A stretch of DNA of 64,000 nt from contig JBGQGY010000002.1 of assembly GCA_041497675.1 (NCBI GenBank), positions 1 to 64,000 on the forward strand, written 5' to 3'. Source of the DNA: a bacterium (GTDB lineage Bacteria; Sysuimicrobiota; Sysuimicrobiia; Sysuimicrobiales; Humicultoraceae). The position numbers and the translations under genes were made by a program. This document shows positions 32,128 through 60,447 of this stretch, in pieces. Within the stretch, counting starts at the first letter, position 1; the number at the start of each line of letters is the position of its first letter. The notes under the pieces are model-generated. The model was not told where the DNA came from. It saw nothing but the letters and a program-made list of their open reading frames with translations, and made no database searches.

Positions 32128-33783
32128 TTACTTCGCCAGCGCGTACAAGTGGTAGTGCTCGTCCGCGTATTCGGTCTTCCAACCGGCGCAGCCCTCGAGC
32201 CCGCCGCCTCTCAGGATGACGTGGGTGACCCCGTACCCGGAGGATAGCTCCTTGAGGAGGCGGCAACGCTCTTCCGGGGAGGGCTGGACGGGTGTCGGAG
32301 CCGGGGCCTGCCGTGGCGCGCGGCCGGTCCGACGGCCTTCGCGCTGGTAGCGGAAGTCATCCTCCGCGTTCGCCTCGACCTCACCGTAGAACGCCTGCGC
32401 CAGGTGCAACCGCTTGTACCATTCCATCACCCCGACGTCATCGTAAGGGATGACCGAATGTTCCATAAAAGCCGGGGCACCAGTATAGAGCCGAAACGTG
32501 CGCCAGTTCGGCGGAATGAGATAAGTTTGACCAGGCACTCCCGTGCGTTTGACGTGCCGCATGACGGTGGGTATCCGCCTCGCGTCCAGGGCAAACCGCG
32601 CTCTGGTCTCAAGCACTCCGGCGATGCAGAACAATACCAGGACGCCCACGCTCGCCACAACGAGGGCCTGCCCCGCAGCCGCGCCGGTTTCGAGCCGGCT
32701 GACCACGAGGGACACGGCGTATCCGAGGATGATCAGGGTCGCGAGCGGCACGGTGAAGGCCGACATCCGCCAGGGAAGGAGTGCGGCGAGCGTGTTGTTG
32801 TATCGGACGGCCTGCGCCGCCGTCAGCACCGCCGTGGTGAGAAACGACCCCAGGAGAATCCAGAAAAAATCGGTCTTCCGAACAAGATAGAGGGCAGCCA
32901 CGATCAGCGCGACCTTGATGTAGACCGCCCCACCCAGCCATAGCGACGGCACCGAGGGCGGATAGTACGCGACCCGCCAGAGGATATTCTGCGCTTCCTT
33001 CCAGAGCGCGGGATTCGTCGGGCCGAACGCCAGATAGGAATACGCCAGCACCGGCAGGATGAGCACGAACGCCAGGAGACCCAACCCGATTGCCGGCCGT
33101 ACTCCCTTCCCGCGCCGGATCATGATGGCCATGTAGGTGAGTGTGAGCACTGCCGAGCAGAGGACGTAACTGGGTTGGAATATCGATGCGATCGTAGACG
33201 TCGTGATGGCCCATACCGGCCGGCCGCGCATGAACAGGTAGATCGAGAGCAACAGAAACGCCCCAAAGGTGCCCGGGTTCAGCATGTCCCCCAGGATGCG
33301 TTTCTCGCCGATGCCCTCCAGCAACAGGATCCGGCCGATGTTGAAGTGGTGCGGTGACGAGGTGAGCGGCAGGCGAAGGCCCATGCGGACGAGGTAGCCA
33401 AATACCGGCGAGTGGAGCGCGACCATCAGGGTCACAAAGATGAGAAACGTCGCGCGCGTGCGGTGGATGGGAACGAGCTGCGAGATGATACCAATCATAG
33501 AGAACGCGTAGACGCCAGCCAGCACGAGGAAGTACAGATACACGAGGCGCAGACTCAGATATCGCTGCGTAAATTCGACCAGCCCGGAGAACACGGGCCA
33601 CGGATCCGGCGTCTGAGCGAACCAGTCGGCGCGCAGCAGGCCATAACCCGCCTTGGCCAACCCCTGGAAGAAGTATTGATTCTGCGTGTGATAAAAGAGC
33701 GCGTACTGCGCATAGGCGACGGCGAACGCCGCCGCCGCAAAGAGCACATACGACCGGGGCACCGGCCGTGACACGTCGACCAT
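32128..33783 (-). CDS. Polytopic membrane protein, DUF6798-like (possible GT-C fold)
   Basis: TQNQYF.QGLA..G.GLLRADW, PWR, YLIPP..FRLYTGAP, PY.D..EW; about 11 TM segments. Confidence 0.65.
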   Translation of the reverse strand: MVDVSRPVPRSYVLFAAAAFAVAYAQYALFYHTQNQYFFQGLAKAGYGLLRADWFAQTPDPWPVFSGLVEFTQRYLSLRLVYLYFLVLAGVYAFSMIGIISQLVPIHRTRATFLIFVTLMVALHSPVFGYLVRMGLRLPLTSSPHHFNIGRILLLEGIGEKRILGDMLNPGTFGAFLLLSIYLFMRGRPVWAITTSTIASIFQPSYVLCSAVLTLTYMAIMIRRGKGVRPAIGLGLLAFVLILPVLAYSYLAFGPTNPALWKEAQNILWRVAYYPPSVPSLWLGGAVYIKVALIVAALYLVRKTDFFWILLGSFLTTAVLTAAQAVRYNNTLAALLPWRMSAFTVPLATLIILGYAVSLVVSRLETGAAAGQALVVASVGVLVLFCIAGVLETRARFALDARRIPTVMRHVKRTGVPGQTYLIPPNWRTFRLYTGAPAFMEHSVIPYDDVGVMEWYKRLHLAQAFYGEVEANAEDDFRYQREGRRTGRAPRQAPAPTPVQPSPEERCRLLKELSSGYGVTHVILRGGGLEGCAGWKTEYADEHYHLYALAK

Positions 33784-33803: not shown

Positions 33804-35117
33804 TTAGAACGTGATCTCTTGCAGTTCGCGGAAGCGGCCCGAACGTAATGGTTGCCCGTCACTTGCCTGCGCGAGCTCGCTGAAGTTGTCGCTCCTGGTG
33901 GTCACGACGGACACCACGTACATCAGTTCCTGCTCTATCTGACTCTGGAACTGCACCGCCAGCCTGGCCAAGTCGCTGGCATCGCCGACACCCTGATAGC
34001 GTGGCAGCGCGAGCGAACGGGACACCTCCAGGCGACCCAAGAAGTGACTGGCATATATCGCCTGGTTTCGCGCCGTCTGGCGGGGATTCTTGAACGACCG
34101 GTCGATGGCCCACGTGGCCATGAATGCCGAGTACATGCCCAGTACGACTCCAATCGAGAATATCGGGTCGACAAATGCGGCCGCGTCGCCCGTCAGAAAG
34201 AACCCAGGGCCCGAGAGCTGCGCGGGACGATAGGAGTAATCGCGGATCATACGCGTGCTGCCCTCACAGAAGGTCGCGTGCTCGAGCAGCCGGTCAAGAT
34301 ACTGTGTCTCATAGCACTTACGCAAGAAGTATTCCTCGAGCCCCTTGTCTGTGGCCTTGATACGCTTCAGGTGGTCGATCGGCACCACCAGACCGACACT
34401 CGTGCTCTCGCGCAGAGGGATATGCCACGACCACCCCCACTCACCCAATTCCCCGACGGATGAGATAAATGTTGTGGGTGGGATCTGGCGGACGTGTTCG
34501 AACCCGTGCGCGCGACCGCCCGCGGCGACGTACTTCGATCCGGTGAAATACCCCCACACGCTCATGAAGCGAAACCCCTCGTCGATCACACGCATGCCGA
34601 GCTGTTTGGCGATGACGGCCCCCTGTCCGCTGGCATCGATCACGAATCGGCAGGCGATCCTGTCCGTTGCCTCGTCATCGGCCGCGCGGTACGCGACCGT
34701 GACGCGCTCGCCCCCGTTGAGGTCGACTTTGGTCGCCGACACGTCCTCAAACACCTGCGCGCCCTGTTCGCGGCTGTGCTCCAGCAGGATCTGGTCGAAC
34801 CGATCACGCTCGACGTGCAGGGCCGGTCGCGTGTAGCCGAAGTCGGCGAAAGCGAGCTGTCGAATCACCCCGTGCCAAGCGTGCGTCCCACCGGCTTTCT
34901 TGATGAAGTCTTCTTCCTCAATTTTCTTCGTCGCGCCGAGCATGTCCGTATACTTCCAAAAGTGCGGGATGAGGCTCTCGCCGACGACATAGCGAGGGTG
35001 CCGGCGCTTCTCCAGCAGCACAACATCGTACCCCTTTTGCCGCAGCAGCGTTGCCGCTGTGCTGCCGGCCGGCCCGCCGCCAATAACAACAACGTCGCAC
35101 TCTCGCGGTATGCGCAT
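33804..35117 (-). CDS. Flavin-dependent halogenase (PltA-like, carrier-protein-dependent class)
   Basis: GGGPAG, VGESLIP, FIKKAG (catalytic Lys position), WSWHIP (WxWxIP), GDAAAFVDPIFSIGV. Confidence 0.8.
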   Translation of the reverse strand: MRIPRECDVVVIGGGPAGSTAATLLRQKGYDVVLLEKRRHPRYVVGESLIPHFWKYTDMLGATKKIEEEDFIKKAGGTHAWHGVIRQLAFADFGYTRPALHVERDRFDQILLEHSREQGAQVFEDVSATKVDLNGGERVTVAYRAADDEATDRIACRFVIDASGQGAVIAKQLGMRVIDEGFRFMSVWGYFTGSKYVAAGGRAHGFEHVRQIPPTTFISSVGELGEWGWSWHIPLRESTSVGLVVPIDHLKRIKATDKGLEEYFLRKCYETQYLDRLLEHATFCEGSTRMIRDYSYRPAQLSGPGFFLTGDAAAFVDPIFSIGVVLGMYSAFMATWAIDRSFKNPRQTARNQAIYASHFLGRLEVSRSLALPRYQGVGDASDLARLAVQFQSQIEQELMYVVSVVTTRSDNFSELAQASDGQPLRSGRFRELQEITF

Positions 35118-35162
35118 TGGGAACCCTCTCGGATTCGTGACGACTGACGTTGACCTTTGCTC

Positions 35163-36116
35163 TTAGTCTTTGATTGAGGACTGAACCCACTTGATGGTGA
35201 GGTCGAGGACGTTGTCTTGCACGTCGAGGCTGGTGAGATTGTTCGGCATGCCCTCGATGGGCGCCAGGGTAATCCGGTCACCGGCCTGATCGAACAGCTC
35301 GCGATATGTTCCGGTCTGGAGCTGCACGAAATCCCGATACATCGATGACCCGCGGCCGTAGACGAACATCACCGGCACGCCGCGGGACACCAAAGCACGG
35401 AGCGAGTCAACCACCGACTTCGAGAGCCACTCGGTTTCCGCGCCACCGTTTCTCCGACGCCTGAACAGTTGGCCCGCCGCGAGGTGGAGTTTTCGCATCC
35501 ACCGTTGGCGGCGGCGCGGGTCGCGCATCCCCCGCAGGATCCGCGTCCAGGCGCCGTGCCGCGCGGCATTCCGCACGTCGTCCAACGCCCACCGGTTCAC
35601 GGCCTGCTCGGTCTGGCCGCGCTCGTGGAGAGGCGGTGAGATCAACGCCACGCCGAGAAGGTTGCGGGCGTGCTGAACGCCCAGCAGCGCGGTCCGAGCC
35701 CCGAAGCACCGGCCGATCAGGACGACCTTGTCGAGCCCGCGCCGGTGAAGTTCCTCGATTGCCCCATGCAGGTCCTGACCGAATGGCTCTTCGTTTGTCG
35801 CGAGCGTGATCACGGCGTGCTTGAGCGCGCTCCCACTCGAGGGCCCGCTGCTTTCACCGAACCCGCGATAGTCAAAACGTAGCACGTGGAATCCCAGCGC
35901 GGCGAGGCGCCGGGCCAGACGTGGTTGAACGCGGTTTCGGTCCGACGTCGCGTTGAGCAGCACAACACCGATCCCACGAGGGGGCCCCAGGGGCTCCGTC
36001 AAGATCCCAAAGGCCCGGTCATCTGCCACCGGAAACCGCACGGGGATCTCCGTGCGGCTGATCGCTTCGGCCTCAATCAACTGATCGTGCGGTGTTGCCG
36101 TGCTCGCGTTCGCCAT
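35163..36116 (-). CDS. Alpha/beta hydrolase, exosortase-associated hydrolase 1-like (Cys at the elbow)
   Basis: RLARRLAALGFHVLRFDYRGFGES.G; GRCFG elbow. Confidence 0.7.
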   Translation of the reverse strand: MANASTATPHDQLIEAEAISRTEIPVRFPVADDRAFGILTEPLGPPRGIGVVLLNATSDRNRVQPRLARRLAALGFHVLRFDYRGFGESSGPSSGSALKHAVITLATNEEPFGQDLHGAIEELHRRGLDKVVLIGRCFGARTALLGVQHARNLLGVALISPPLHERGQTEQAVNRWALDDVRNAARHGAWTRILRGMRDPRRRQRWMRKLHLAAGQLFRRRRNGGAETEWLSKSVVDSLRALVSRGVPVMFVYGRGSSMYRDFVQLQTGTYRELFDQAGDRITLAPIEGMPNNLTSLDVQDNVLDLTIKWVQSSIKD

Positions 36117-36143
36117 GATGCAGACCCCTCAAGAGTAGAATGC

Positions 36144-37667
36144 TTACGCCTGCTCCGCCGCACGCCGCCTCGGACTTCGCCGGCCGGGGACCACTTCGCG
36201 GATTGCGCGGACCAACCCGCGAATAACCTGCGGGTCGATCAGCCACAGCGCGGCGGCGTAGGTCACGGCTCCGGCCGCAATCAGGATGATCAACACGACG
36301 ACTTCGGGCAAGTGGGCATGGCCCTCAAGCACCCACATCAGCGTGGCCACAACGGCGGCCATGATCGTGCATCCGATGACCGTCGCGTTCAGGGCGGCCC
36401 ACACATCCCTAACGGTCATGCCGATCGCCTGGGACACGTAGCGATAGACGATCGGCATCAACGCGATGGTGGCGACCAGATAGCCTGCGGCGACGCCGAT
36501 GATTCCCCAATGGAGCCCGACGACGAACGCCGGCAGGTAGAGGCCGACGGAAAACATGGACAGACGCAGGCGCAGACCCGGCTTGCCGGTGGCCTCCAGC
36601 CCTGTCGGCCAGAACGTCGTCAGCAGGCGCAGGAACCCGGCGATGGTCAGCACCCGGATGACCGGCACAGCCGGCAGCCACTTCGCGCTAAACACCACAC
36701 TCACGGCCAGCGGGGCGACGAGGGCCAGACCGACCAGCATCGGCAACGTCACCATCGTCACATACTGGGTGGCGCGCATGAAAGCGTTTTTGAAACGCAC
36801 CGCGTCGTCCTGTAGCCTGGACAGGGCTGGGAAGAACACCCGGTTGAGCAACCCGATGTCGTTGAGCGGCGCCAGAAAGACGGAATAGCCAAACGTGTAG
36901 TAGCCCAACGCCGTCGCCCCCAGATACCGGCCGACGAGCAAGTTGTCCATTTGCCGCACGAAGTAGTCGAACAGGGACGCCCCCTGCAGCCGGCCGCCAA
37001 AGGACCAGAGTTCAAGAAACTTCGAACGGACAAACACGAACCGCGGCCTCCAGCCGGTAGCGCGCCAGAGCAGAAGGGTCCCGGAGGCGTACATCGTGAG
37101 CTCCTGACCGACGAAGCTCCACACGCCCATACCGCGGTACGCCATCGAGATCCCGACCACACCGCCGACCAGCGTCGCCGCCATCGAGCGAAAGGCCAGC
37201 AACCGGTAGTCCATGCGCCGGGACACGATGGCCATCTGCATGGATGCGCCCGAGATGATCAAGAAACTCAGGGACAGCACCGACAGCACGCGACCGACCA
37301 GCGGATCGCCAAGCCAGCGCCCGACGAGGATGCCTGCGAGGGCGCCGAACGCCGCAAGGATGACGCCGAGCGTCACGCTTGCCCAGAAGCCTGTGGACAG
37401 ATACTCGTCGTCGATCTCCCGGCGCTGAATGATTGCTGAACCCATCCCCATGCTCCCGATGATGCGGAGGAACGTGAGGAAGACCGCGGCCAGCGCAAAG
37501 ACGCCGTAGTCCTTTGGGAGCAACAGGCGCGCCAGGACGACCGCAAAGATCTGGTCAACGACCCGGCGCCCGAATTGATCACCGCCGAACCACAGGATCC
37601 CACGCATTGTCGCCGCGCGAAGCCGATGCAACGGCACGCCGGCGGCGGTGGTTATCTGTTCAGACAT
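36144..37667 (-). CDS. Wzx-type flippase (WzxC/PST family)
   Basis: LARLLLPKDYG, AIIQR, DNLLVGRYLGATALGYY, FFPALSRLQDD; about 12 TM segments. Confidence 0.92.
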   Translation of the reverse strand: MSEQITTAAGVPLHRLRAATMRGILWFGGDQFGRRVVDQIFAVVLARLLLPKDYGVFALAAVFLTFLRIIGSMGMGSAIIQRREIDDEYLSTGFWASVTLGVILAAFGALAGILVGRWLGDPLVGRVLSVLSLSFLIISGASMQMAIVSRRMDYRLLAFRSMAATLVGGVVGISMAYRGMGVWSFVGQELTMYASGTLLLWRATGWRPRFVFVRSKFLELWSFGGRLQGASLFDYFVRQMDNLLVGRYLGATALGYYTFGYSVFLAPLNDIGLLNRVFFPALSRLQDDAVRFKNAFMRATQYVTMVTLPMLVGLALVAPLAVSVVFSAKWLPAVPVIRVLTIAGFLRLLTTFWPTGLEATGKPGLRLRLSMFSVGLYLPAFVVGLHWGIIGVAAGYLVATIALMPIVYRYVSQAIGMTVRDVWAALNATVIGCTIMAAVVATLMWVLEGHAHLPEVVVLIILIAAGAVTYAAALWLIDPQVIRGLVRAIREVVPGRRSPRRRAAEQA

Positions 37668-37698
37668 TGGTGTAGGTTCTGTCCGGCTGGGAGCTCAA

Positions 37699-37965
37699 TC
37701 AGGCGCCCGCGCGGCCGCGGTCGAGCATCTTCTTGTCGACCAGGCTCGCAATCGACGCAATCGTGCCAAAATTCGCCGGAACGAGTTCCTCGTCGGCTAG
37801 CTCGATCCCAAATTGCTGTTCCACGAAGGACACGAGCATCAGCAGACCCATGGAGTCGACCACGTGATTCTCGATCAACCCAAATTCGGGCGTCAACGCG
37901 CCCTTTGTCTCATCCCAGTGCAGTTCACTCAAGAGAAAGTTTCTCACCGTCACGGCTGTTGTCAC
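37699..37965 (-). CDS. Standalone acyl/peptidyl carrier protein
   Basis: VVDSMGL phosphopantetheine Ser motif, FVEQQFGI, PANFGTI; strong AAGGAGG RBS. Confidence 0.9.
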   Translation of the reverse strand: MTTAVTVRNFLLSELHWDETKGALTPEFGLIENHVVDSMGLLMLVSFVEQQFGIELADEELVPANFGTIASIASLVDKKMLDRGRAGA

Positions 37966-38018
37966 CTAGCTGTCCTCCTTCTGGAAACCCGGCTTTTTGT
38001 GGTTCACCAGCCCGCACA

Positions 38019-39614
38019 TTATGTGCGGTTGGGGACCGTTGACGCCGGCGCCGCCAGAGCGGTCCGGTCGGTCTTGCCCGTCGACGTCTTGGGTAGGGCC
38101 GGCACAAACTCAAAGATCTCCGGCAGCATGTATCGGGGCAGCAGCCCGGCGCAGAACTTCGTCAGGTCGCCGTCGTCCACGGCCGGGTTGTTCGTCACGA
38201 CGAAGGCCTTGATCCGACTACCCACCACATCGTCCGGGATGGCGATGACGGCGCATTCGGCCACGGCCGGGTGCGCGGAGAGCGCCGACTCGATGTCGCC
38301 CAACTCGATGCGGTACCCCCGACTCTTGATCTGGTGATCCCGGCGCCCCAGAAAGATGGTGTGGCCGTCCGCACGTCGCCGGACCAGGTCGCCCGTCCGA
38401 TAGACTCGGCCTTTCATCGGTCCTGACGGATTCTGCAGGAACGCCCGGGTCGTGCGCTCCGTATCCCCCCAATAGCCCTGCGCCACCGTGTCGCCCCGCA
38501 CCTGGAGTTCACCGACCTCCCCGTCGGCCATCGGCTGTCCCGACTCGCCGACCACAAACACGTCGACGCCGCCGATGGGCACACCGATAGGAATAGACTC
38601 GGTCTGGTCTGCCGGCAAGAGCGGTACCGGGTAATACGTGCAGACGTTGGTCTCCGTCGGCCCATAGAGGTTGGTGAACACCGCGTGCGGTACCAACCCC
38701 ATCAGCGCCCGCAGGTGTTTGGTCGGGAACACCTCACCCGCAAAGATCAGGTGCCGGAGCGTGCGCAACCGCCCAACGGTCAGGTTGCCGCGCAGCACCA
38801 GAAGCGTCAGCACGGAGGGTACCGAGTACCACATCGTGATGCCGCGGTCCTCGATGAACCTGGCCAGCTGCACCGGAAAGACCGAGATCTCGGGAGGGAC
38901 GATGGCCAGGGCCGCTCCGGCCATCGCCGCCGCGAAGATATCGAGGATCGTCAGATCGAAGTGCAGCGGCGCATGATTCGAGAACACGTCCTCGGGCGTC
39001 CCGCCAAAGTAATCATGACACCACCCAACAAACGCCAGCGCGTTTCGGTGCGACAGCATCACGCCCTTCGGTTGTCCCGTCGATCCCGACGTGTACAGGA
39101 TATAGGCCAGGTCGCCGCTGCTGCCCTCGACGGTGTGCGCGGCGGTCGGCGCGGCTTCCAGCGCATCGGTCCCCAGGCACCGTACGCCTTCCGGTGTAGC
39201 GCCTTCGTCACCTCGGGCGTCCAGGACGACCAGGTGCTGGAGCGGGGCACCCGCGCCTACGAGCCCGCTCCACTCTCGAGATTTCTCCCGATGCGTCACC
39301 AGGCAGCGGACTCCACAGTCGCGGGTAATATACCCCAGACGCTGGGCCGGGGCGGCCGGGTCCAGCGGTACATAGGCGGCACCGGCCTTGAGGATGCCGT
39401 AGATGCCCACGATGGCCTCGTTACATTTGTTCAAGAAGAGGCCGACGCGATCGCCCGGGCGGATTCCGGCTTCGCGCAGCGCAAACGCCAGTTGATCGGC
39501 GCGACGGTCGAGCTGCGCGTACGTCATGACCCCGCGTGTATCCCGCAGCGCAATGCGACCCGGGAATCGGTTCGCGGCCTCCGCAACGAGGTGGGGCAAC
39601 AGCACCGCGTTCAC
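38019..39614 (-). CDS. Standalone amino-acid adenylation enzyme, probable L-prolyl-AMP ligase (PltF/RedM-like)
   Basis: YTSGSTGQPKG, FDL, NLYGPTETNVC, YRTGD, RGYRIELGDIE, TGK; specificity code read by eye as DLLYIALVCK. Confidence 0.85.
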   Translation of the reverse strand: MNAVLLPHLVAEAANRFPGRIALRDTRGVMTYAQLDRRADQLAFALREAGIRPGDRVGLFLNKCNEAIVGIYGILKAGAAYVPLDPAAPAQRLGYITRDCGVRCLVTHREKSREWSGLVGAGAPLQHLVVLDARGDEGATPEGVRCLGTDALEAAPTAAHTVEGSSGDLAYILYTSGSTGQPKGVMLSHRNALAFVGWCHDYFGGTPEDVFSNHAPLHFDLTILDIFAAAMAGAALAIVPPEISVFPVQLARFIEDRGITMWYSVPSVLTLLVLRGNLTVGRLRTLRHLIFAGEVFPTKHLRALMGLVPHAVFTNLYGPTETNVCTYYPVPLLPADQTESIPIGVPIGGVDVFVVGESGQPMADGEVGELQVRGDTVAQGYWGDTERTTRAFLQNPSGPMKGRVYRTGDLVRRRADGHTIFLGRRDHQIKSRGYRIELGDIESALSAHPAVAECAVIAIPDDVVGSRIKAFVVTNNPAVDDGDLTKFCAGLLPRYMLPEIFEFVPALPKTSTGKTDRTALAAPASTVPNRT

Positions 39615-40756
39615 AGCCCGAGGCCTCCGGCGATGATGTTCCGCTGGATCTCCGACGTCCCCGAGTACAGCCGGCTTCCAACGGCGTCGCGAAGTTCGCG
39701 TTCCAATTCGTACTCGGCCGTGTATCCGTATCCGCCGTGAATCTGCACCGCGTCGAGGCTGGATTCCACAAAACATTCGCTCAAATAGAGCTTAACCATC
39801 GCCGATTCCATCGCCGTGCGTTTGCCCTGAGTCTTCAACCAGCCTACCTTGTACAGCAAGAGCCGCGCGGTCTCGAGCCGGACCTTCATGTCGGCGATCC
39901 GGTGCGCCACGGCCTGAAACTTGCCGATAGGCTGACCAAACTGTGTCCGCTCCTTCGCGTGCGCGACGCACCGTTCGAGCTGCCGCTGCATCGTCCCTAC
40001 CGCCGTCGCGAGTATGCAGGTACGCTCCCAGTCCATCGACGTGTTGAAGATCGTCGAGCCGGCGCCTGGAGCACCCAGCAGGTTCTCATCGGGAACCTCG
40101 CAACCGTCCAGGGCCAGCTCGCCCATCGGGGATGTTCGGAGTCCCATCTTGTGTATCTGACCGGCTACCGACAGACCCGGTGTCTGCCGCTCCACAATGA
40201 AGGCCGAGAGCCCGGCAAATCCCATCGCTGGATCAGTCCGGGCAAATACGAGAAAGACATCGGCGACGGGAGCATTCGTGATGAACGTCTTGCTGCCGGC
40301 GATCACATACCCACCGCTCGTCTTACGGGCCGTGGCACGAAGGCTGAATGCGTCCGAGCCGGACATCGGTTCGGTCATGGCCTGGACGCCGATCATGGTC
40401 CCGTCGCACAGCCGGGGTAAGTAACGCTCCTTTTGGTCTTCTCGCCCGAACTTCCACAAAGGGAGCTGAAAACTCCACATCTGCGCGTTGAGGGAGAATA
40501 ACAGCCCGTTGTCTCTGCACGCGTATCCAAGCGCTTCCAGCGCGATCAGCGTCGTCAACGGGTCCAGACCGCCACCGCCATAGGCCTCAGGAAACGGCAA
40601 CCCTTGAATCCCAAATGTGCCGCATTTCTCCCACAGCGCGCGCGAAAAATCGCCGTGCAGATCACGTGTCAACAGGTCGTCACGCAGTTCGCGCTCGGCG
40701 AACCGTGTCACGGCCTGCTGAAGCTGCTCTTGGTCTTTGGTCAGCGAGAAGTCCAT
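39611..40756 (-). CDS. Acyl-CoA dehydrogenase family, probable prolyl-carrier dehydrogenase (PltE/RedW-like)
   Basis: TEPMSGSD, GSKTFITNAP.AD, KMGLRTSP, QFGQPIGKFQAV, IHGGYGY, YSGTSEIQR; stop overlaps the A-domain start. Confidence 0.85.
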   Translation of the reverse strand: MDFSLTKDQEQLQQAVTRFAERELRDDLLTRDLHGDFSRALWEKCGTFGIQGLPFPEAYGGGGLDPLTTLIALEALGYACRDNGLLFSLNAQMWSFQLPLWKFGREDQKERYLPRLCDGTMIGVQAMTEPMSGSDAFSLRATARKTSGGYVIAGSKTFITNAPVADVFLVFARTDPAMGFAGLSAFIVERQTPGLSVAGQIHKMGLRTSPMGELALDGCEVPDENLLGAPGAGSTIFNTSMDWERTCILATAVGTMQRQLERCVAHAKERTQFGQPIGKFQAVAHRIADMKVRLETARLLLYKVGWLKTQGKRTAMESAMVKLYLSECFVESSLDAVQIHGGYGYTAEYELERELRDAVGSRLYSGTSEIQRNIIAGGLGL

Positions 40757-40781
40757 CGACGCAAACGCTCCATGTCCTGCA

Positions 40782-41678
40782 TCAAACGGCGGGAATCGTG
40801 CGCGTGAGCCACGCAGCCGACGCCTCCACGATCACTCTCGGGGAGGGCATGGGACTATCGACAAAGGCCCACGCCCCTTCGCCGAGGATCACCGTGGCTT
40901 CGACGGAACAGCCGGCCGCAACCAACGCATCTTGCAGCCTCGCGAACTCGGGCTTGACGGCCTGTTGGGGGCTGATCTGCACCAACAGGACCGGCCGGGC
41001 GCCGGCGGCAGCCAATTGCGTCAGGCTCCGGCCTTCCGCGCTGTTGTACAACGCGCGGTGAATTGGATATCCCAACGTATCCAGCACGCCCACGGCAGCC
41101 ACGCGCTCCACGGCCTGCGTCACGGTCAAAGCGCTCGCACCCCCGGCGAGGGCGCTGATCTGGCTCGCGCGGAAGATCTCTCGAAAATATCCCCGACCGT
41201 CCATGACGGGTTCCCACAGAATTAGCGGAGCGCCGGGATGTTGCAGCGCCGTGAGCGCGGCAACCAGACCGCCCCACCGTCCGCCGCAAAACGCCAACGC
41301 GGAAACTCCAGTGCGGGTCTTGAGATACTCGACCGCCGCGGCGGTGTCCTCAAGCATCGTATCGAGGGTCGTGTCGTCAAACGCGCCACTGCTGTGCCCG
41401 GTCCCGCGGTAGTGGAAGCGAATCGTCGCGAGTCCGGCCTTCGCGAAGGCCCGCGCGGTCAGGACATGGGTACCGTACATCTTGTGCTCTTCGGCGAGCA
41501 TTCCCTGGCACATCACCACACCGGCGCGCGGCGCCGCTTCACCCCGGTGAACCACGCAAAAGAGCTCCCCGTGCTGCGTGGGGAGAAACATCGCATCCTC
41601 GTACACCTGCTCCGCCGGATCGACATACCGGGCGACGCGCGGCGGAACGGTCATGCCCACACTTTCAACCCTTGCCAT
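40782..41678 (-). CDS. Alpha/beta hydrolase, exosortase-associated hydrolase 2-like (Arg at the elbow)
   Basis: AEEH, RFHYRGTGHSSG, GGRWGG, LILWEPVMDG. Confidence 0.7.
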   Translation of the reverse strand: MARVESVGMTVPPRVARYVDPAEQVYEDAMFLPTQHGELFCVVHRGEAAPRAGVVMCQGMLAEEHKMYGTHVLTARAFAKAGLATIRFHYRGTGHSSGAFDDTTLDTMLEDTAAAVEYLKTRTGVSALAFCGGRWGGLVAALTALQHPGAPLILWEPVMDGRGYFREIFRASQISALAGGASALTVTQAVERVAAVGVLDTLGYPIHRALYNSAEGRSLTQLAAAGARPVLLVQISPQQAVKPEFARLQDALVAAGCSVEATVILGEGAWAFVDSPMPSPRVIVEASAAWLTRTIPAV

Positions 41679-41709: not shown

Positions 41710-43347
41710 TCAGCGTGCCGTGACGCGATAGACGCCGTATTCGGCATCCTCATATGCGGGGTGCAGGCGACCGCAAGTCCCATCGGTTTGCGCCCGTCGA
41801 AGCACCACGTGAGTCACGGCATAGCGGCGCACCACATCCGAAAGCGTCTGGCAAACCAGCGCCGGATCGTTGAGCCGAGACAGCCCCCAGGCCGTTTCAG
41901 ACCGAGAAACCCACTCGACCAGTTCCACGTCCTTGTACGGAATAGATTTGCGATCGACGAAGACCGGGGCGCCCGTGTAGAGCCGGAACCGCTCCAGCAC
42001 AGGGGGGATCAGGTACAGATCGCCAAGAGACTTGGTCCTTCGCACGAAGTCCATCACGGGCACGCTGGCATCCTGTCTGTCCTCGTCCGCGAGTCGTTGC
42101 GTGTACTGCCAGCCGCCGACCATGAGCAACACGAGGGCCACGGCGCATCCCCATGTCAGGAGACGTTCTCGTTGGGCAGTGTCTTTCACAAACCGACTGT
42201 CGAACCAGGACACAAGAGCGGCCGCCAGCACACTTGTCGCTACCGGAACCACATACACGGACAACCGCCACGGAAACAGCAATGCCAGGCCGGGGCTTCC
42301 CGATACCACCTGGACCACGGTGAGCACGACACCGACCACCGTGGAGATCAGCAGCACGGCGAAGAGCCGTGGCGATCGCCGGGCGACGACAAGTCCGGCA
42401 CACACCAAGACTATTTGCACGTACGCAGGCGTGCCGAGCCACCGGTGGACAAGTGCATGGTGTTGCAACCGCACATTCATCAGAACGTCCTGCGCGGCCG
42501 CCCATGCCGATGGGGAGGTCGGACGGAACGCGACCACCACGTACGCGGCCATTGGCAGCAGCAGCAGCGCTCCGAGAATCCCGATACCGACGGCCTGCCG
42601 AGTATCTCGAGTCTCCTTGATGATGACGAGTACGTACGACAGGATCAGCACGCCGGCTGCCAGCAGGTACGCGGGATGCAAGATGGCGGCCGCGGCTCCG
42701 TGGACGACGGCGACCTTCCGACGGTCTTGTGCGAACGCGTGGATGGACGCGATGAGGAACACTCCGGCCATACTCGGCTGCAGAATATCTCCCATCAGGA
42801 ACTGCCCGGCAACACCATTCGTGAATACCGCCCGCAGGTCGATGCCGAGGGTCGGCAGCGACAGCGCGGCCAGCAGCGCCGAGTGTATCCCCAACAACAG
42901 CATCACGTACGCCGCCAGCCTGGTCCGTGAGGCGTCCACCGGCACAGTGCGCAAAGTCAGACCGATGAGCCCGCTAAAGTAGACGCCGGCCAGAACCATG
43001 AAGTAGACGAAAAACAACCCCTCGTGAAGATAGCGCGTAGTCAACTCGACCAGGAAGCTGAATATGGGCGTCGGGTCAACCGTCGTCGCCAGCCAGTCGT
43101 GGCGCAGGAGACCCACGCCGGCCCGGGCAAATCCATGAAGGAAGTATTGATTTTGATTCGATGTGTACAGCGGCGCCTGTCCGTAGATCACACCCCCGAC
43201 AATCGCCAGGATGGCGAACGTGCCCAGGCGCAGGAGCATGACGCGAACGGCGGCCACGCTCCCGGATGGCCATGCCGGAGCGGGTTCGACCTTCGGCCCC
43301 GCCTCGGTGGCGGTTGCCCGCCCGGCGTCCAGGCTGAAGCCCTTCAT
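41710..43347 (-). CDS. Polytopic membrane protein, DUF6798-like (paralog of 32128..33783)
   Basis: SNQNQYFLHG, LFPWR, YLIPP..FRLYTGAPVFVDRKSIPYKD; ATG overlaps the upstream stop. Confidence 0.65.
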   Translation of the reverse strand: MKGFSLDAGRATATEAGPKVEPAPAWPSGSVAAVRVMLLRLGTFAILAIVGGVIYGQAPLYTSNQNQYFLHGFARAGVGLLRHDWLATTVDPTPIFSFLVELTTRYLHEGLFFVYFMVLAGVYFSGLIGLTLRTVPVDASRTRLAAYVMLLLGIHSALLAALSLPTLGIDLRAVFTNGVAGQFLMGDILQPSMAGVFLIASIHAFAQDRRKVAVVHGAAAAILHPAYLLAAGVLILSYVLVIIKETRDTRQAVGIGILGALLLLPMAAYVVVAFRPTSPSAWAAAQDVLMNVRLQHHALVHRWLGTPAYVQIVLVCAGLVVARRSPRLFAVLLISTVVGVVLTVVQVVSGSPGLALLFPWRLSVYVVPVATSVLAAALVSWFDSRFVKDTAQRERLLTWGCAVALVLLMVGGWQYTQRLADEDRQDASVPVMDFVRRTKSLGDLYLIPPVLERFRLYTGAPVFVDRKSIPYKDVELVEWVSRSETAWGLSRLNDPALVCQTLSDVVRRYAVTHVVLRRAQTDGTCGRLHPAYEDAEYGVYRVTAR

Positions 43348-44120
43348 GTGCCCGCCTTGTGGGCCACGCACAGCAGCGACAGCCCCAGCGGAAGATCCAT
43401 CACCCGGATCAAACTTCGCTCCAGTAGCAGCACGCGATACGCCAACCAGTTCCACGGGTTGGCGAGGTCGAGTGGATCAGCCTGCGGTCTTGCGTCACGA
43501 CGCACCGCCGATATCAAGCGGACGGCCACCGCGACGGGAAGCAGCAGGGCGTTGAAGTAGGTGACCCGCACGACCTGAAACCCGCACGCCTCAAGGAGCC
43601 GCCGGATCTCGCCACGCGAGTAGCGCCGGACATGTCCCAGGGCCCTGTCGTGTTCGCTGTACAACCACGACAGCGCGGGGACGGTGATGAGCAACGTGCC
43701 GCCAGGTTTCAGCACGCGAAAGCACTCGCGAAGCACGCGTCCGTCGTCCTCCACGTGCTCGAGGACATCGGTGATCCCCGCCAGATCCAGCGCGTCCCCT
43801 CGTAGCGGCATGCCCTCAAGCGTCCCGATAGCCAGGTTTCGATATCCCCGCGTGCGGCACACGGCGACTGCCAATGGCGAGATGTCAATGCCCACGACCT
43901 CACCATGCGCACGCAGGACGTCGGCCATCCCGCCGGCGCCGCATCCAAGATCACCGACGGTGCCGTTCGCGGCGCCGTTCAATTGACTCTCTAAGACCGC
44001 CCGGACGAGATCCCGGCGGCCGCGGACCCACCAAGAGGTCTGGTCGGACTGGGCCAGGCGGGCGATCTCCTGTTCGTTGGGCCCAAACGCCTCGGGGTGA
44101 TGGTCGACGCCGGTCGACAC
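43344..44120 (-). CDS. Class I SAM-dependent methyltransferase
   Basis: WWVRGRR, DLGCGAG, DVLEHVEDD, TVPA..WLYSEHD...HVRRY. Confidence 0.85.
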   Translation of the reverse strand: MSTGVDHHPEAFGPNEQEIARLAQSDQTSWWVRGRRDLVRAVLESQLNGAANGTVGDLGCGAGGMADVLRAHGEVVGIDISPLAVAVCRTRGYRNLAIGTLEGMPLRGDALDLAGITDVLEHVEDDGRVLRECFRVLKPGGTLLITVPALSWLYSEHDRALGHVRRYSRGEIRRLLEACGFQVVRVTYFNALLLPVAVAVRLISAVRRDARPQADPLDLANPWNWLAYRVLLLERSLIRVMDLPLGLSLLCVAHKAGT

Positions 44121-44121
44121 C

Positions 44122-44919
44122 TTAGGGCTTCTCCGAGAGCGCCGGCGGCTGCCGATCGTTGACGACCGCAGCCATAGCCGTCACATCATACTGGTTGGTC
44201 CGCAGCCAGTAGGCGATCCTCACCATGTCACGGAACATGCTCAGGCTGTCGCGCCCGAGGCTCACCTTGCTGTGGTTCACATGCGACCAGCGCACCGGCA
44301 CCTCGACCAGACGGTAGGCTGCCTGTGCGGCCAATCCCAAGACTTCCACGTCAAAGGCGAATCCGTCGATCTTTGCGTGGGCGAACAGCCGCCGGGCGAC
44401 CGAGCCGCGGAAGAGCTTGAACCCGCACTGCGTGTCGAACACCCCGGGCAGGATGGCGAGCTGCACAAACACGTTGAACAGCCGCCCCATCATTTCGCGG
44501 TAGATGGGCTGGCGCAGGACGAGTCGCGAGCCACGCATTCCTCGAGAACCGATCGCAATGTCGGCTCCCGCGTTAATCGGCGCCAGGAGAGATTCGAATT
44601 CCTCAATCGGGGTTGCGAGATCCGCGTCGGTCACCAGGATGAGATCACCGGTCGAGGTCGCGACCCCGCGTCTTACCGCGCTGCCTTTGCCTTCATTGCG
44701 TGGACCCCGCACCAGTTGGATCGACGGGTGGGTGCGCTGAAGAGTGTTGACGATCTCACCCGTTGCGTCGACACTCCCGTCATCCGACACAATAATGTCG
44801 TGCGGCTCGTGCCGACCATTCATGTACTCTGCAATCATGGTAATGGTTCTTTCGATCCGCCGCTCTTCGTTAAAAGCCGGCACCACGATTGATACGTGCT
44901 GATGCCCCGGTCTCTCCAT
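44122..44919 (-). CDS. GT2 polyprenol-phosphate glycosyltransferase (Dol-P-Glc synthase-like)
   Basis: PAFNE, DDGSVD, GKGSAV, DADL, DTQCGFKLF, FAFDVE. Confidence 0.92.
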   Translation of the reverse strand: MERPGHQHVSIVVPAFNEERRIERTITMIAEYMNGRHEPHDIIVSDDGSVDATGEIVNTLQRTHPSIQLVRGPRNEGKGSAVRRGVATSTGDLILVTDADLATPIEEFESLLAPINAGADIAIGSRGMRGSRLVLRQPIYREMMGRLFNVFVQLAILPGVFDTQCGFKLFRGSVARRLFAHAKIDGFAFDVEVLGLAAQAAYRLVEVPVRWSHVNHSKVSLGRDSLSMFRDMVRIAYWLRTNQYDVTAMAAVVNDRQPPALSEKP

Positions 44920-44996
44920 GCTGAATCCTCCTGCGCACTCTCAGCGTTGTCGCGGCGGTTCCACAGCAGGACTCGCCGAAACCAGCGCCGCGTGCG

Positions 44997-46664
44997 TCAT
45001 TCCTGCCCGCAGCTCCACGAGACGCTGAGGACCTCGTAGGCGATGAACTCCGGGAATCTCGCCAGCTCCCGCACTGGGAGCGATGGCTCGCCCCGGAGCA
45101 GCTTCTCGATCGTGCGACCGTACCGCCGGCCCATGGCTTGAGGATCCAGCCCGCCGTCTTCGGCGCGCAGGATCAGGTACGGGTGCTCCCACCCCAGCGT
45201 GGTCAGGGTACTCGCGATGCGCCGGCAATCGCGGTCAAACCGATCGCCACCACGGTACTCGAGGAAAGACGCAAACGACACCACGGGCCGGTCGAGATAA
45301 AACGTATAGTCGAAGCCCCCGTTGCCGACAATCGGCGCACCTGGAGGTGTATTGGCCGCCACCCACTTGACCCACACAGGCGGATCATCAGGGTGCAACC
45401 GCGGGCCACCCGCGGCCATCGCCCGGGGGAGCACCACGCCCGCCACCACGGCCACACAGACAACGGCGACGACCCATGGCAGCGCGCGCCGCGCCGGGGC
45501 CGCGACGATGCTCACAAACACGGCGACCGCGCCGCTGACGCTGACGAGCGCCAACGGATACCCCGGCATCAGCATCCGCGTGCTCAATGACATGAAGCCC
45601 ATCACCAGATGCGCGACGAGCATCCCGGCCCAAAACCCGGCCCAAAGCATGATCAGGAAGCGACGCTCCGCCGTCCCGATCGAGCTCGCAAGCGCGGCCC
45701 TGACCCCTGCGCGGACTCGGTCGCTGCGAAGCAGACCGTACAGCAGCACGCCCCCCCCCGCGAGCACCAGAAGGATCACCGCCCGCCGATCGACGTTGGC
45801 CATCTCAGGCAGGACCAAGACCCGCGACAACAGCTCGAGGGCGTCGGCGGCGATAGTCTTCACGGCGTACGCCGCATGGTACACCAATCCGCGTTCGTCG
45901 GGCGGACGTCCGGCTCCAATCAACGAACCGGTAACGACGACGTTGCGTATTAAGAACGCCACTGGGGGGATAGCGGCGCAGACAGACCACACTGCTGTGA
46001 CCGCCAGCCGCTCTCTGAGTGCGCGTCCCTGAAGATTCACGATCAGGCCCACGGCGCCAATCGGAATCAGCGCCAGCGCCGCGTATCGGGTGAGCGAGGC
46101 CGCTCCCATCGCCAGTCCTCCGAGAGCGGCGATAAGCAATACCCGCGCCGTCGTGGGTTGCGGACGAAGCAGCCTCACGGTAATGACCGCGCACAGCACC
46201 ACGAACAACACGAACAGGTTCTCGGACAGCGCCATGCCGGCGGTACGGGCCACCGGCGGCCACACCGCGAGGAGTAGCGCAGTGATGGTTCCGACACTGC
46301 GATCGAATACGGCCGAGCCCAGCACCCAGACCAGCGCCACGGTGAGGCCAAATGCCGCTATGGACACCAGTTTTGTCGCCTCGGGAGCAGGCACGCCAAG
46401 TTTTGTCACCGCAGCCGCGGCCCCCGGGTAGAGAGGAGGCCAAAACGATATGGGTGACGGCATCTTCGCCGGGTAGTAGGGAGCGAGCAGGCGCGTGGAC
46501 ATGCCTTCGCCGGCCGCGATGCGCCGCGTGAAGTCCACGTACCCCATCTCCATAGGATCCCGGAACGGTGGCGTGTGGGCCGTCTCGAGTAGCGCGACGA
46601 CCATCGCCAGTAGTGCCAAGATCACGGCGGGTAGGGCGCCGACACGCGGCGCAACACGGTTCAT
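44997..46664 (-). CDS. ArnT/PMT-like (GT-C) membrane glycosyltransferase
   Basis: D..GY loop, WPPLYP, LSENLF, LTRY; many TM segments; true start ATG 46664. Confidence 0.8.
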   Translation of the reverse strand: MNRVAPRVGALPAVILALLAMVVALLETAHTPPFRDPMEMGYVDFTRRIAAGEGMSTRLLAPYYPAKMPSPISFWPPLYPGAAAAVTKLGVPAPEATKLVSIAAFGLTVALVWVLGSAVFDRSVGTITALLLAVWPPVARTAGMALSENLFVLFVVLCAVITVRLLRPQPTTARVLLIAALGGLAMGAASLTRYAALALIPIGAVGLIVNLQGRALRERLAVTAVWSVCAAIPPVAFLIRNVVVTGSLIGAGRPPDERGLVYHAAYAVKTIAADALELLSRVLVLPEMANVDRRAVILLVLAGGGVLLYGLLRSDRVRAGVRAALASSIGTAERRFLIMLWAGFWAGMLVAHLVMGFMSLSTRMLMPGYPLALVSVSGAVAVFVSIVAAPARRALPWVVAVVCVAVVAGVVLPRAMAAGGPRLHPDDPPVWVKWVAANTPPGAPIVGNGGFDYTFYLDRPVVSFASFLEYRGGDRFDRDCRRIASTLTTLGWEHPYLILRAEDGGLDPQAMGRRYGRTIEKLLRGEPSLPVRELARFPEFIAYEVLSVSWSCGQE

Positions 46665-46690
46665 GGCATGCTCTCGCGACACTCGGTGGC

Positions 46691-46870
46691 TTAGAACAGT
46701 GTGTAGATGAACGGCGCCAATCCCGTGGCCGCCGCGAGCACGAACAACAGCGCGAACACGACCAGAACCAGGATGAGAGGCGTCGCCCACCAGCGCTTCA
46801 TGTGCCACAGAGACCTGAAAAGTTCACCCACGATCTGCAGTGACGCTCCAATCGCTCTCAACACGTTCAC
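46691..46870 (-). CDS. Small membrane protein, DUF5989/SxtK-like (59 aa)
   Basis: MNVLRAIGASLQIVGELFRSLWHMKRWWATPLILVLVVFALLFVLAAATGLAPFIYTLF; GAGGAGG RBS; not in the ORF track. Confidence 0.85.
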   Translation of the reverse strand: MNVLRAIGASLQIVGELFRSLWHMKRWWATPLILVLVVFALLFVLAAATGLAPFIYTLF

Positions 46871-46897
46871 AGCGCATTCCTCCTCTGTTCCTTCAGC

Positions 46898-48583
46898 TCA
46901 GCGAGCCTCACAGGTCCACTGCGGTTGCTGGATCAGGAATGCTGCAAACTCCGCATGGCGGGCCAGTGGCACGACCGGCAGGGTGGTCGGACGGCCGCGC
47001 AGCAGCCGATCAATCGTCGGCCCATACCGCCGACCCATCAGGTCGATATCGAACTCGCCATCTTCCGCGTGAAGCACGAGATAGGCCTTGTTCCAGCCAA
47101 GCATGACCAGGTGACGGGAGATCAACGCGCAGTCGCGGTCGAATCGGTCACCGGCGCGGTAGACCGCGAACACCTGGAAGGAATAGGCGGGCCGATCAAG
47201 ATAGAAACTGAAATCGGTCGAACGATTCCCAATGATCGGACTTCCCGCCGGCGTATTGGCGGCCACCCACTGTACCCACACGGGCGCCGGATCCGGCGCC
47301 AGCCGCGGCCCCCCGGCCGCAACGGCCCTCGGCAGCACAACGCCTATCGCCGAAATCGCGAACACGATTGACACCGCCCAGACCACAACCCGCCGGGCCA
47401 ACCCCAGGCGCTCAAGGAATGCCATGACGATCGCGATGACGCAGATCAACACCAGCGGATAGCCGGGCATCAACATCCGAGTATTCAACGGTTCGAACGC
47501 CGTCATGCTACGAATCGCCACCATCGCGACCCAGTAGCCGGCTCCAATCACCACGACCAGGCGGCCACTCGGCGAGCTCTTCAGGACGGTACCCGCCTCG
47601 ACCAGCCCGCGACGTACGCGAGGACTGCGCACGAGCCCATAGAGCAACAACCCGACCGCGGCCAGCACAAACAGGATCATCACACGGCTGTCCAGTCCCA
47701 ACGCTTCAGGGATGACCGTGAGACGCCACAACAGCTTCAACCCATCCGTCACCAGGGTCTTCGCTGCGAAGACAACGTGATAGACGACGCCCTGGTCGTC
47801 CGGGGGCCGACCGCGCCCCATGAATGCACCTGTCACGAGCCGATTGCGAACGAGCAACAACACCGGCGGCACGCCGGCGCACACCGACCAGATCGTCACG
47901 AGTTTGAGGCGTTGCCGCCAGGGCTGCACTTCAAGGTTCAAGAGCAAGAACACGCCAGCGATCGCCATCACGGCCAGACCCGGATAGCGGGTCAGGGCCG
48001 CGCCCGCCATCGCCAGGCCCCCAGTCGCGGCAAGGCGGGACGCCCCTGGTGTCGCCGCGTCGCGGAGGAGCCGAGCACTGAACAACACCGACAAGGTCAA
48101 GAACATGATAAAGAGATTCTCCGACAACGCCATGGCGGCGATGCCGGTGACAACGGGCCATGCCATCAGCAGTAGCGCCGCAGTCGTGCCCACCCCTTCA
48201 CCGAAGACCTCCCTACCGATGACCCACACCACTCCCACTGAGACCCCAAACGCCGCCACAGACACGATCCGCGAGGCGATCGCCGCGTCGACTCCCACTG
48301 CGAGGAACGCGGCAATCACGGCCGGATACAGCGGTGGCCAGAGGGCTATTGGCGACGGGAACTTCGCCACATGCGAGGGGAAGTAGATGGTCGATACAAT
48401 GCCTTCGCCCCGCGCCAGGTGGCGCGCCATATCCACGTAGATCATCCCGGTGGCATCGAATCCCGGGGATGTTGCCGTCTGGGCCAAAGCCGCCGCGATG
48501 CCCAAGGCGATGAAACACACAACCCAAACGGTGCGCCGTGATTCCGCGATCACCGGCCTGCGCCACGCACCATTCGCCACCAT
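46898..48583 (-). CDS. ArnT/PMT-like (GT-C) membrane glycosyltransferase (paralog)
   Basis: WPPLYP, LSENLF, LTRY, RMLMPGYP; colinear with 44997..46664. Confidence 0.8.
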   Translation of the reverse strand: MVANGAWRRPVIAESRRTVWVVCFIALGIAAALAQTATSPGFDATGMIYVDMARHLARGEGIVSTIYFPSHVAKFPSPIALWPPLYPAVIAAFLAVGVDAAIASRIVSVAAFGVSVGVVWVIGREVFGEGVGTTAALLLMAWPVVTGIAAMALSENLFIMFLTLSVLFSARLLRDAATPGASRLAATGGLAMAGAALTRYPGLAVMAIAGVFLLLNLEVQPWRQRLKLVTIWSVCAGVPPVLLLVRNRLVTGAFMGRGRPPDDQGVVYHVVFAAKTLVTDGLKLLWRLTVIPEALGLDSRVMILFVLAAVGLLLYGLVRSPRVRRGLVEAGTVLKSSPSGRLVVVIGAGYWVAMVAIRSMTAFEPLNTRMLMPGYPLVLICVIAIVMAFLERLGLARRVVVWAVSIVFAISAIGVVLPRAVAAGGPRLAPDPAPVWVQWVAANTPAGSPIIGNRSTDFSFYLDRPAYSFQVFAVYRAGDRFDRDCALISRHLVMLGWNKAYLVLHAEDGEFDIDLMGRRYGPTIDRLLRGRPTTLPVVPLARHAEFAAFLIQQPQWTCEAR

Positions 48584-48586
48584 CCG

Positions 48587-49762: not shown

Positions 49763-49774
49763 ACCGAAACTCGG

Positions 49775-50959: not shown

Positions 50960-50980
50960 ATGCCCTTGTTGAAGTTACGG

Positions 50981-52980: not shown

Positions 52981-53067
52981 CTCGATCCCTCTCGTCCGGG
53001 CCGGCCGCGGACTGTCGGCCGGATCCACGGAAACCGCTGGTTTTCCCACGCGTGCGTCATCCACCAG

Positions 53068-54678: not shown

Positions 54679-54682
54679 AACG

Positions 54683-57234: not shown

Positions 57235-57274
57235 CTGTGCGTCCTCACAGCCTCTTCAGCATTGAGCGCAACAC

Positions 57275-58464: not shown

Positions 58465-58470
58465 GACCGG

Positions 58471-60393: not shown

Positions 60394-60447
60394 CGGCCCT
60401 CACCTCTCTGAGTATGTGCCCGGATCCACATGTCCATGGCTGTCTTG

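Follow-up and report, generated by a model that had tools for sequence, protein, structure and literature searches.

We propose a model for seven co-directional genes on the minus strand of a 64-kb stretch of bacterial DNA (hereafter the window: positions 1 to 64,000 of contig JBGQGY010000002.1, which is 82 kb long and belongs to a draft assembly of 3.97 Mb that is 98.6% complete and has an Armatimonadota metagenome-assembled genome as its nearest named relative). In this model, which we hold tentatively and at only a little under an even chance, the seven genes would form a carrier-protein-dependent acylation cassette plugged into a surface-glycan operon of the Wzx type, through which a proline-derived group is loaded, oxidised, halogenated and transferred. 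The genes lie at 33804-41678, separated by intergenic gaps of 25-53 nt and in one place overlapping by 4 nt, and the Pfam and NCBIfam assignments bear out the tight run that a first-pass annotation of this DNA had described:

40782..41678, minus strand: hydrolase-2, an alpha/beta-fold protein with Arg134 at the nucleophile position (Pfam Hydrolase_4)
39611..40756, minus strand: FAD enzyme of the acyl-CoA-dehydrogenase (ACAD) fold, predicted prolyl-S-carrier dehydrogenase (NCBIfam PigA/RedW models, PDB 4irn)
38019..39614, minus strand: stand-alone adenylation (A) domain with a proline-type pocket (TIGR01733, 409 bits; PDB 6o6e)
37699..37965, minus strand: stand-alone carrier of 88 amino acids (aa) with the serine motif VDSMG (from the translation and PDB carrier matches)
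36144..37667, minus strand: Wzx/MOP flippase inside the cassette (Polysacc_synt_3, 261 bits)
35163..36116, minus strand: hydrolase-1, an alpha/beta-fold protein with Cys137 at the nucleophile elbow, GRCFG (Pfam Abhydrolase_6)
33804..35117, minus strand: flavin-dependent halogenase (Trp_halogenase, 101.5 bits)

The A domain would load L-proline onto the 88-aa carrier, and the ACAD-fold flavoenzyme would convert the prolyl-S-carrier to pyrrolyl-2-carboxyl-S-carrier, a two-electron, pyrroline-carboxyl product being possible instead. The halogenase would then halogenate the tethered ring. Sequence and synteny lead us to infer these first three steps. Hydrolase-1 may next take the acyl group on Cys137 as a thioester and, together with hydrolase-2, in which Arg replaces the nucleophile, may hand it to a sugar, at either a hydroxyl or an amino group. 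Such a transfer would take place at the cytoplasmic face, most likely on a polyprenyl-linked repeat unit, ahead of flipping by Wzx. We regard this putative transfer of the halopyrrolyl group onto a glycan as plausible, and the earlier interpretation of the locus as a glycan halopyrrolylation system is, taken overall, partly supported. That interpretation had named no described example, and our search of the full-text literature, which covered papers outside subscription and without their supplements, likewise found none.

Predicted loading, oxidation and halogenation on the carrier

The A domain scores above the TIGR01733 cut-off, and its best single-domain match in the PDB is 6o6e, an L-proline-[L-prolyl-carrier protein] ligase, at 332.8 bits. 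With the pocket segment alone 6o6e again leads (124.7 bits), followed by a second proline ligase, 7thn (90.3), and by the next family, the beta-aminoacyl-acyl carrier protein (ACP) synthetases (80.1). With the specificity-code positions placed via the core motifs, according to what we take to be the GrsA numbering, the pocket reads D-L-L/WYSVPSV/I-A/L-V-C, which differs from the D-L-L/WYSVPSV/L-A/L-V-C of 6o6e (PltF) by a single change, Ile for Leu. The pattern D-L-[LFW] .. [LI]-A .. L-V-C is present in 14 of 15 aligned cassette-type A domains from other genomes, the exception, in locus L030 (fetched loci carry L numbers), reading DMP/TA/QVC; exosortase-type ligases have a different pocket, D[AY][SN]..MRS. 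We place the likely start of the A-domain gene at a GTG in the 4-nt overlap with the dehydrogenase stop, because it fits the 532-aa homologues better than does the 585-aa open reading frame (ORF), itself open up to 39776. A kinase gene beside the cassette in L063 and L080 was considered as a source of proline, an idea that was dropped because the kinase is an aspartate kinase.

The dehydrogenase matches 4irn, a prolyl-ACP dehydrogenase, at 430.9 bits, with the next PDB score at 329.7, ordinary ACADs at no more than 330, and 6cxt chain B as the second-best match. Among NCBIfam models PigA is the top scorer (466.2 bits, cut-off 500), and RedW gives 420.4 bits (cut-off 650). The carrier has no Pfam match at E 1e-5 and matches several NCBIfam ACP models, all under their cut-offs; among its PDB matches are PigG and chain A (77 aa) of 6cxt, an entry which we take to be the Bmp1-Bmp3 pair. 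The halogenase retains GxGxxG and WxWxIP, and one of its Lys residues aligns with the catalytic Lys of CmlS and CndH; K74, W229, W231 and I233 are invariant in 121 family members, and P234 is present in 118 of them. The first-pass annotation had read the A domain, carrier, dehydrogenase and halogenase as a proline-to-(halo)pyrrolyl-carrier set, and this reading is supported, at the level of sequence, by the PltF-like pocket, the AnaB/PigA-like dehydrogenase, the likeness of the carrier to those of pyrrole pathways, and the motifs and synteny of the halogenase.

The family of this halogenase is large, 7142 proteins passing E 1e-20 among 8000 candidates scored, and its top 120 relatives, at 57-93% identity, come from many phyla. 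Among 44 fetched loci that hold a halogenase relative, a PltF-like A domain (at least 44% identity) was present in 28, the dehydrogenase (at least 50% identity) in 17, a carrier in 29, and either the A domain or the dehydrogenase in 30, usually in the order dehydrogenase-A-carrier-halogenase. The 14 loci with neither A domain nor dehydrogenase include several that are short contigs or hold distant homologues. The same order recurs in Binatia, Betaproteobacteria, Chloroflexota, Gemmatimonadota and Alphaproteobacteria, and this conserved synteny across phyla is the main evidence that the halogenase acts on a carrier-bound ring. One betaproteobacterial locus has a tandem pair of halogenases, 60% and 58% identical to that of the window (L110:8001-10600).

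Up to the tethered pyrrole the predicted chemistry is that of pyoluteorin, prodigiosin and clorobiocin. The pyoluteorin (PltF/PltL/PltE/PltA), prodigiosin (PigI/PigG/PigA) and tetrabromopyrrole (Bmp) systems share four components with the window: an A domain for proline whose pocket is the same, a small carrier, a dehydrogenase of the ACAD fold and a flavin halogenase. In contrast to them, the window set lacks an onward polyketide synthase (PKS), non-ribosomal peptide synthetase (NRPS) or PigJ-type ketosynthase, carries a halogenase of another clade and sits in a glycan operon.

Several features of these enzymes weigh against the model. The PigA, RedW, TIGR03098, TIGR03100 and TIGR03101 models, the last three from exosortase-associated families, all score under their curated cut-offs. 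The best solved match of the dehydrogenase, 4irn, is an enzyme which we take to give the two-electron product only. Furthermore, the halogenase scores higher against CmlS (169 bits), 8zop (156) and CndH (151) than against PltA (128), 5buk (121) and 5bva (99), and so falls outside the known clade of pyrrolyl-carrier halogenases. The last two points also favour an alternative in which something other than a halopyrrole is formed on the carrier, because the dehydrogenase stops at the pyrroline-carboxyl stage, as the anatoxin enzyme does, or because the halogenase has a different substrate within the locus; in the same direction point the otherwise complete cassettes that lack a halogenase (L021, L033, L041-L043, L056) and the close halogenase homologues without A domain or dehydrogenase nearby (L111, L112). 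We nevertheless consider this alternative quite improbable, since the top NCBIfam model, PigA, is by name a family of four-electron enzymes, since the order dehydrogenase-A-carrier-halogenase is kept across all the groups listed above, and since flavin halogenases need an electron-rich ring.

Recurrence of the cassette

Genes in the fetched loci were called with a crude caller based on GC content at third codon positions (GC3), which leaves some starts and strands wrong, and only Pfam-positive ORFs were used. Within the phylum of the window, hydrolase-2 occurs in 10 of 94 genomes and 9 of 31 genera, the window's own genome counted, a patchy spread that would suit an accessory decoration. Two loci of this phylum, L015 and L016, carry the full set, halogenase included, among glycan genes. 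In L019 the dehydrogenase, A domain, two hydrolase pairs, carrier and a divergent halogenase of 514 aa stand beside a priming glycosyltransferase and Wza/Wzc, and in L021 Wza, Wzc, a NusG-like protein and a UDP-sugar dehydrogenase are found with hydrolase-2, hydrolase-1, dehydrogenase, A domain and carrier, the halogenase being absent. The glycan neighbours of these four cassettes comprise Wza/Wzc, UDP-sugar dehydrogenase, glycosyltransferase (GT) and priming-transferase genes. L017 and L020 have the hydrolase pair and carrier with glycan genes, and neither an A domain nor a dehydrogenase within reach. A wzx gene lies within or adjoins the cassette in three different gene orders, those of the window, L005 and L106. 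Homologues of the DUF6798 membrane protein encoded at 32128-33783 adjoin the cassette in L015, L016 and L106 and are thus co-conserved in the relatives; in the window, DUF6798 proteins are found on both flanks of the cassette.

Outside the phylum we collected 79 loci with hydrolase-1 relatives, from Acidimicrobiia and other Actinomycetota, Eisenbacteria, a proteobacterium and metagenome-assembled genomes (MAGs). Hydrolase-2 is adjacent in 65 of these, a carrier was seen in 32, the dehydrogenase (at least 50% identity) in 12, a PltF-like A domain (at least 47%) in 10 and the halogenase in 4. Dehydrogenase and A domain occur together in 7 of the 79; L052 would be an eighth, its A domain falling just under the threshold.

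Four further observations concern these loci. Tandem copies of the hydrolase-2/hydrolase-1 pair are found in one locus of the Armatimonadota type (L019:7777-11305) and in several Actinomycetes loci, including L024, L026 and L028. In a Piscinibacter MAG (L003:164-9381) a distant hydrolase-2/hydrolase-1 pair adjoins a hybrid megasynthase with the order AMP-ligase, ketosynthase, acyltransferase, carrier, and the pair is therefore not confined to PKS-free contexts. A gene of the sulfatase family (PF00884) lies beside the carrier gene in L017, L020 and L021 (e.g. L021:14379-15761), and the window has none. Finally, a UbiA gene that follows the halogenase in L015 was considered as a halopyrrole prenylase, an idea that we rejected because this copy scores as a decaprenyl-phosphate phosphoribosyltransferase equivalog, a glycan enzyme; a homologous UbiA follows the halogenase in L016/L002, as judged by Pfam only.

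Proposed transfer of the acyl group and its possible acceptor

The earlier statement that the window holds no PKS, condensation or thioesterase domain is confirmed among its ORFs of at least 200 aa, and the search of the whole draft assembly extends beyond the 64 kb. There the Condensation domain has no match. The ketoacyl-synthase domain has five, a couple of them short stretches of about 37 residues and the other three full-length, stand-alone ketosynthases in open frames of 455-491 aa, all above the FabF equivalog cut-off and reaching about 100 bits against the PigJ model, whose cut-off is 900. A PKS or NRPS beyond the window that consumes the pyrrolyl unit, which the first-pass annotation had named as a refutation of its reading, was accordingly not found, as far as a draft assembly allows. 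The FabF-equivalog ketosynthases lie on contigs C96, C218 and C41, and the 491-aa one adjoins a gene of the geranylgeranyl-reductase family.

The candidates for transfer are hydrolase-1 and hydrolase-2. A Ser-His-Asp triad with GxSxG is present in neither and, judged by sequence, neither is a serine hydrolase. The elbow Cys of hydrolase-1 is kept in 20 of 20 aligned homologues, one of them named exosortase A-associated hydrolase 1 by JGI, and in 58 of 58 sequences from the fetched loci. In hydrolase-2 the motif is GGRWGG, with Arg at the nucleophile position in 10 of 10 aligned sequences and in 77 of 83 of a wider set; its Cys57 is found in 39 of the 83, in the nearer subfamily only. Structure models of both adopt the alpha/beta fold, with predicted local distance difference test (pLDDT) values of 84.1 for hydrolase-1 and 87.6 for hydrolase-2. 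Inspection without a predictor revealed no hydrophobic N-terminus in either protein and no apparent signal peptide in hydrolase-2, and both are probably cytoplasmic on account of these N-termini.

The best indirect argument that the pair transfers an acyl group, and does not hydrolyse it, comes from a second type of halogenase locus. A gene of PF03279, the lipid A biosynthesis acyltransferase family, comes directly after the halogenase in 25 of the 44 loci, most of them from Casimicrobiaceae and other Betaproteobacteria, and scores about 40 bits (cut-off 22.3) with a weak match to the model of the phosphatidylinositol mannoside acyltransferase. In L116-L143 and L147 (e.g. L126:4436-10373), dehydrogenase, A domain, carrier and halogenase are followed by one or two such genes, and no hydrolase pair, PKS or NRPS was found near these dehydrogenase-A-carrier-halogenase-PF03279 runs. 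Conversely, profile searches place the hydrolase pair in 3 of the 44 halogenase loci, which are of an Armatimonadota type, and never alongside PF03279; the window and the hydrolase-pair loci likewise gave no PF03279 homologue. The place that follows the four shared genes is thus filled in one type of locus by the hydrolase pair and in the other by an unrelated protein from a family of acyl-carrier-dependent acyltransferases. Members of PF03279 are acyltransferases for lipid A or phosphatidylinositol mannosides, and an acceptor of lipid or glycolipid nature is therefore also conceivable.

Parts of the proposed route have counterparts in known systems. In the aminocoumarins, CloN3/N4/N5 with CloN1/N2/N7 turn a proline-derived pyrrolyl-carrier into an ester of a hydroxyl of the sugar noviose through an acyltransferase and without a condensation domain (PMC11218499, PMC8748450). 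CloN7/CouN7, the former compared here by its published role only, provide a precedent for direct transfer from a pyrrolyl-carrier to a sugar; in contrast to the window, the acceptor there is a small-molecule glycoside, whereas the window has one carrier that we could see and a Cys-/Arg-type alpha/beta-fold pair as candidates for transfer. D-alanylation of teichoic acids by the Dlt system likewise uses a stand-alone A domain (DltA) to load an amino acid onto a small carrier (DltC), destined for a polymer of the cell envelope. The window differs in that its amino acid would first be oxidised and halogenated; its A domain reaches 277-280 bits against DltA models with cut-offs of 476-560, and neither MBOAT nor DltD was found in the scanned ORFs.

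The hydrolases themselves lead to a third comparison. In NCBIfam they match best the models for 'exosortase A system-associated' hydrolase 1 and hydrolase 2. These belong to a set (TIGR03098 ligase, TIGR03100, TIGR03101 and a carrier) which, like the window, has the hydrolase pair next to an adenylating enzyme and a carrier within polysaccharide loci, and the Cys of hydrolase-1 is common to the window protein and to members named exosortase A-associated. All window scores lie below the cut-offs, at 319.4 bits against 592 for TIGR03098 and, for the hydrolases far below, at 56.3 against 168.45 for TIGR03100 (hydrolase-1) and 111.8 against 202.75 for TIGR03101 (hydrolase-2). The window further differs in its A-domain pocket and in having the dehydrogenase and halogenase as additions, and no exosortase (PF09721) was found in its own genome. 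Among the TIGR accessions sought in the literature, the sole match was a table entry for Bcam1334 in the Burkholderia cenocepacia exopolysaccharide cluster (PMC3584217).

Further observations tell against transfer to a glycan by this pair. The position usually held by the catalytic His is His in 44 of 58 hydrolase-1 relatives, whereas the window protein and those nearest to it have Asn there. Fold searches of both models retrieved generic alpha/beta hydrolases only, at template-modelling (TM) scores of about 0.55 for hydrolase-1 and of 0.65-0.80 for the nearest folds of hydrolase-2, a lipase and feruloyl esterases; the feruloyl-esterase likeness was set aside as evidence because it is too generic. 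Ten loci outside the phylum were annotated by Pfam, and of these four are clearly of the glycan type, one is ambiguous (L080) and five are not. The glycan-type loci (L033, L039, L056 and L088, from Acidimicrobiia, Actinomycetes and a proteobacterium) have among them sulfotransferases, GT4, an ABC transporter, a priming transferase, Wzx, and WecG or a PglF-like enzyme, whereas this annotation showed no glycan genes in L041, L043, L052, L063 and L023. In the Eisenbacteria loci L041 and L043 the five-gene set of hydrolase-2, hydrolase-1, dehydrogenase, A domain and carrier sits between KsgA and TatD/MetRS, in L052 and L063 it adjoins unrelated metabolic genes, and in L109 the halogenase set adjoins genes of the tricarboxylic acid (TCA) cycle. 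The earlier expectation that the set would recur together with wzx therefore stands for the glycan loci of relatives and of other phyla, and does not stand for L041, L043 and L109, where the genes keep company with housekeeping genes; the halogenase is in any case optional.

These loci would also suit an alternative in which the product is a free small molecule, the hydrolases releasing (halo)pyrrole-2-carboxylate or a simple derivative of it, with the position in a glycan operon incidental or serving co-regulation. Alpha/beta-hydrolase thioesterases are a usual release route, five-gene sets occur with no glycan gene nearby (L041, L043, L052), a halogenase set lies beside the TCA-cycle genes of L109, and a transporter of the major facilitator superfamily is near the halogenase loci L110 and L126. 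We judge this alternative improbable, however, as the Ser nucleophile of a thioesterase is replaced by the conserved Cys of hydrolase-1 and the largely conserved Arg of hydrolase-2, as the hydrolases are paired in 65 of the 79 loci where plain hydrolysis would not need two proteins, and as wzx is enclosed in a tightly packed operon. Other members of the hydrolase families, moreover, are found in exopolysaccharide loci, as the table entry for Bcam1334 and the NCBIfam names indicate.

A further alternative, unlikely in our view and yet one to be reckoned with, keeps the same carrier chemistry and changes the acceptor, which might be a lipid or glycolipid of the membrane, a polyprenyl-phosphate sugar that serves the GT-C-like PMT_2/DUF6798 proteins as donor, or a protein-linked glycan. 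The 25 of 44 halogenase loci in which an LpxL/PatA-type acyltransferase of PF03279 would carry out the transfer favour it, as do the DUF6798 membrane proteins on either side of the cassette, the decaprenyl-phosphate phosphoribosyltransferase of L015 with its UbiA homologue in L016/L002, and the score of 186 bits, though under cut-off, that Wzx obtains against an O-glycosylation flippase model. The stand-alone island in Eisenbacteria adds that the acceptor there must be a common cell component. Set against these points are the embedding of wzx in the cassette in three different gene orders and the lack of any PF03279 match in the window and the hydrolase-pair loci, and we found no feature that points to a lipid acceptor.

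Returning to the model of glycan acylation, its most general form is that widespread halopyrrolyl-carrier modules (dehydrogenase, A domain, carrier and halogenase) without PKS or NRPS decorate glycans or glycolipids of the cell envelope, by means of interchangeable transfer enzymes, either the Cys/Arg alpha/beta-fold pair shared with exosortase-type exopolysaccharide loci or an LpxL-family acyltransferase. We consider this generalisation possible, although somewhat less than evenly probable. If it is true, bacterial surface polymers would carry halogenated aromatic esters or amides, and the exosortase-associated hydrolase 1/2 pair of many exopolysaccharide loci would gain a first function, acyl transfer from a carrier. 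Halogenated or pyrrole-acylated surface glycans, none of which our literature search found described, would be a new surface chemistry, and a halogen-bearing aromatic moiety at the cell surface would have consequences for phage and antibody recognition and for the properties of biofilms. Finally, the proline-to-pyrrole module would have a large and unstudied life outside antibiotic biosynthesis, given the thousands of close halogenase homologues that exist.

Surroundings of the cassette

The cassette is continuous with further minus-strand genes on either side:

41710..64000, minus strand: rest of the glycan operon (Pfam and NCBIfam)
32128..33783, minus strand: DUF6798 membrane protein, the last gene of the run (Pfam DUF6798)

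Upstream in the operon, the stretch from 41710 to 64000 encodes DUF6798, a methyltransferase, GT2, two PMT_2, two GDSL proteins and a carbamoyltransferase, as well as Acetyltransf_6, a PglF-like dehydratase, a deacetylase, GT4, GNAT and a second MOP flippase. Downstream of the DUF6798 gene at 32128-33783 follow three plus-strand ORFs without a family match and then a two-component system. The claim that glycan genes flank the cassette on both sides is for this reason only partly right: it applies to the upstream side, and the downstream side offers a single DUF6798 gene followed by unannotated ORFs and the two-component system. The flippase inside the cassette scores 229.9 bits against the MOP flippase model, below its cut-off of 273 bits. 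The second MOP/Wzx flippase runs across the end of the window, from 63393-63998 into L102:2-1444, so that the locus has two flippases.

Three other features of the window were noted. Two long ORFs, at 53068-54969 and 55894-57234, have no Pfam or NCBIfam match and lie beside the FemAB-like Acetyltransf_6 gene (54683-56182). A protein of 1238 aa encoded at 13167-16883 contains five GAF domains and one GGDEF domain, a possible cyclic di-GMP input near the glycan locus. At 6624-8978 the DnaB helicase gene is interrupted by an intein, its Intein_splicing domain lying between the two halves of DnaB_C.

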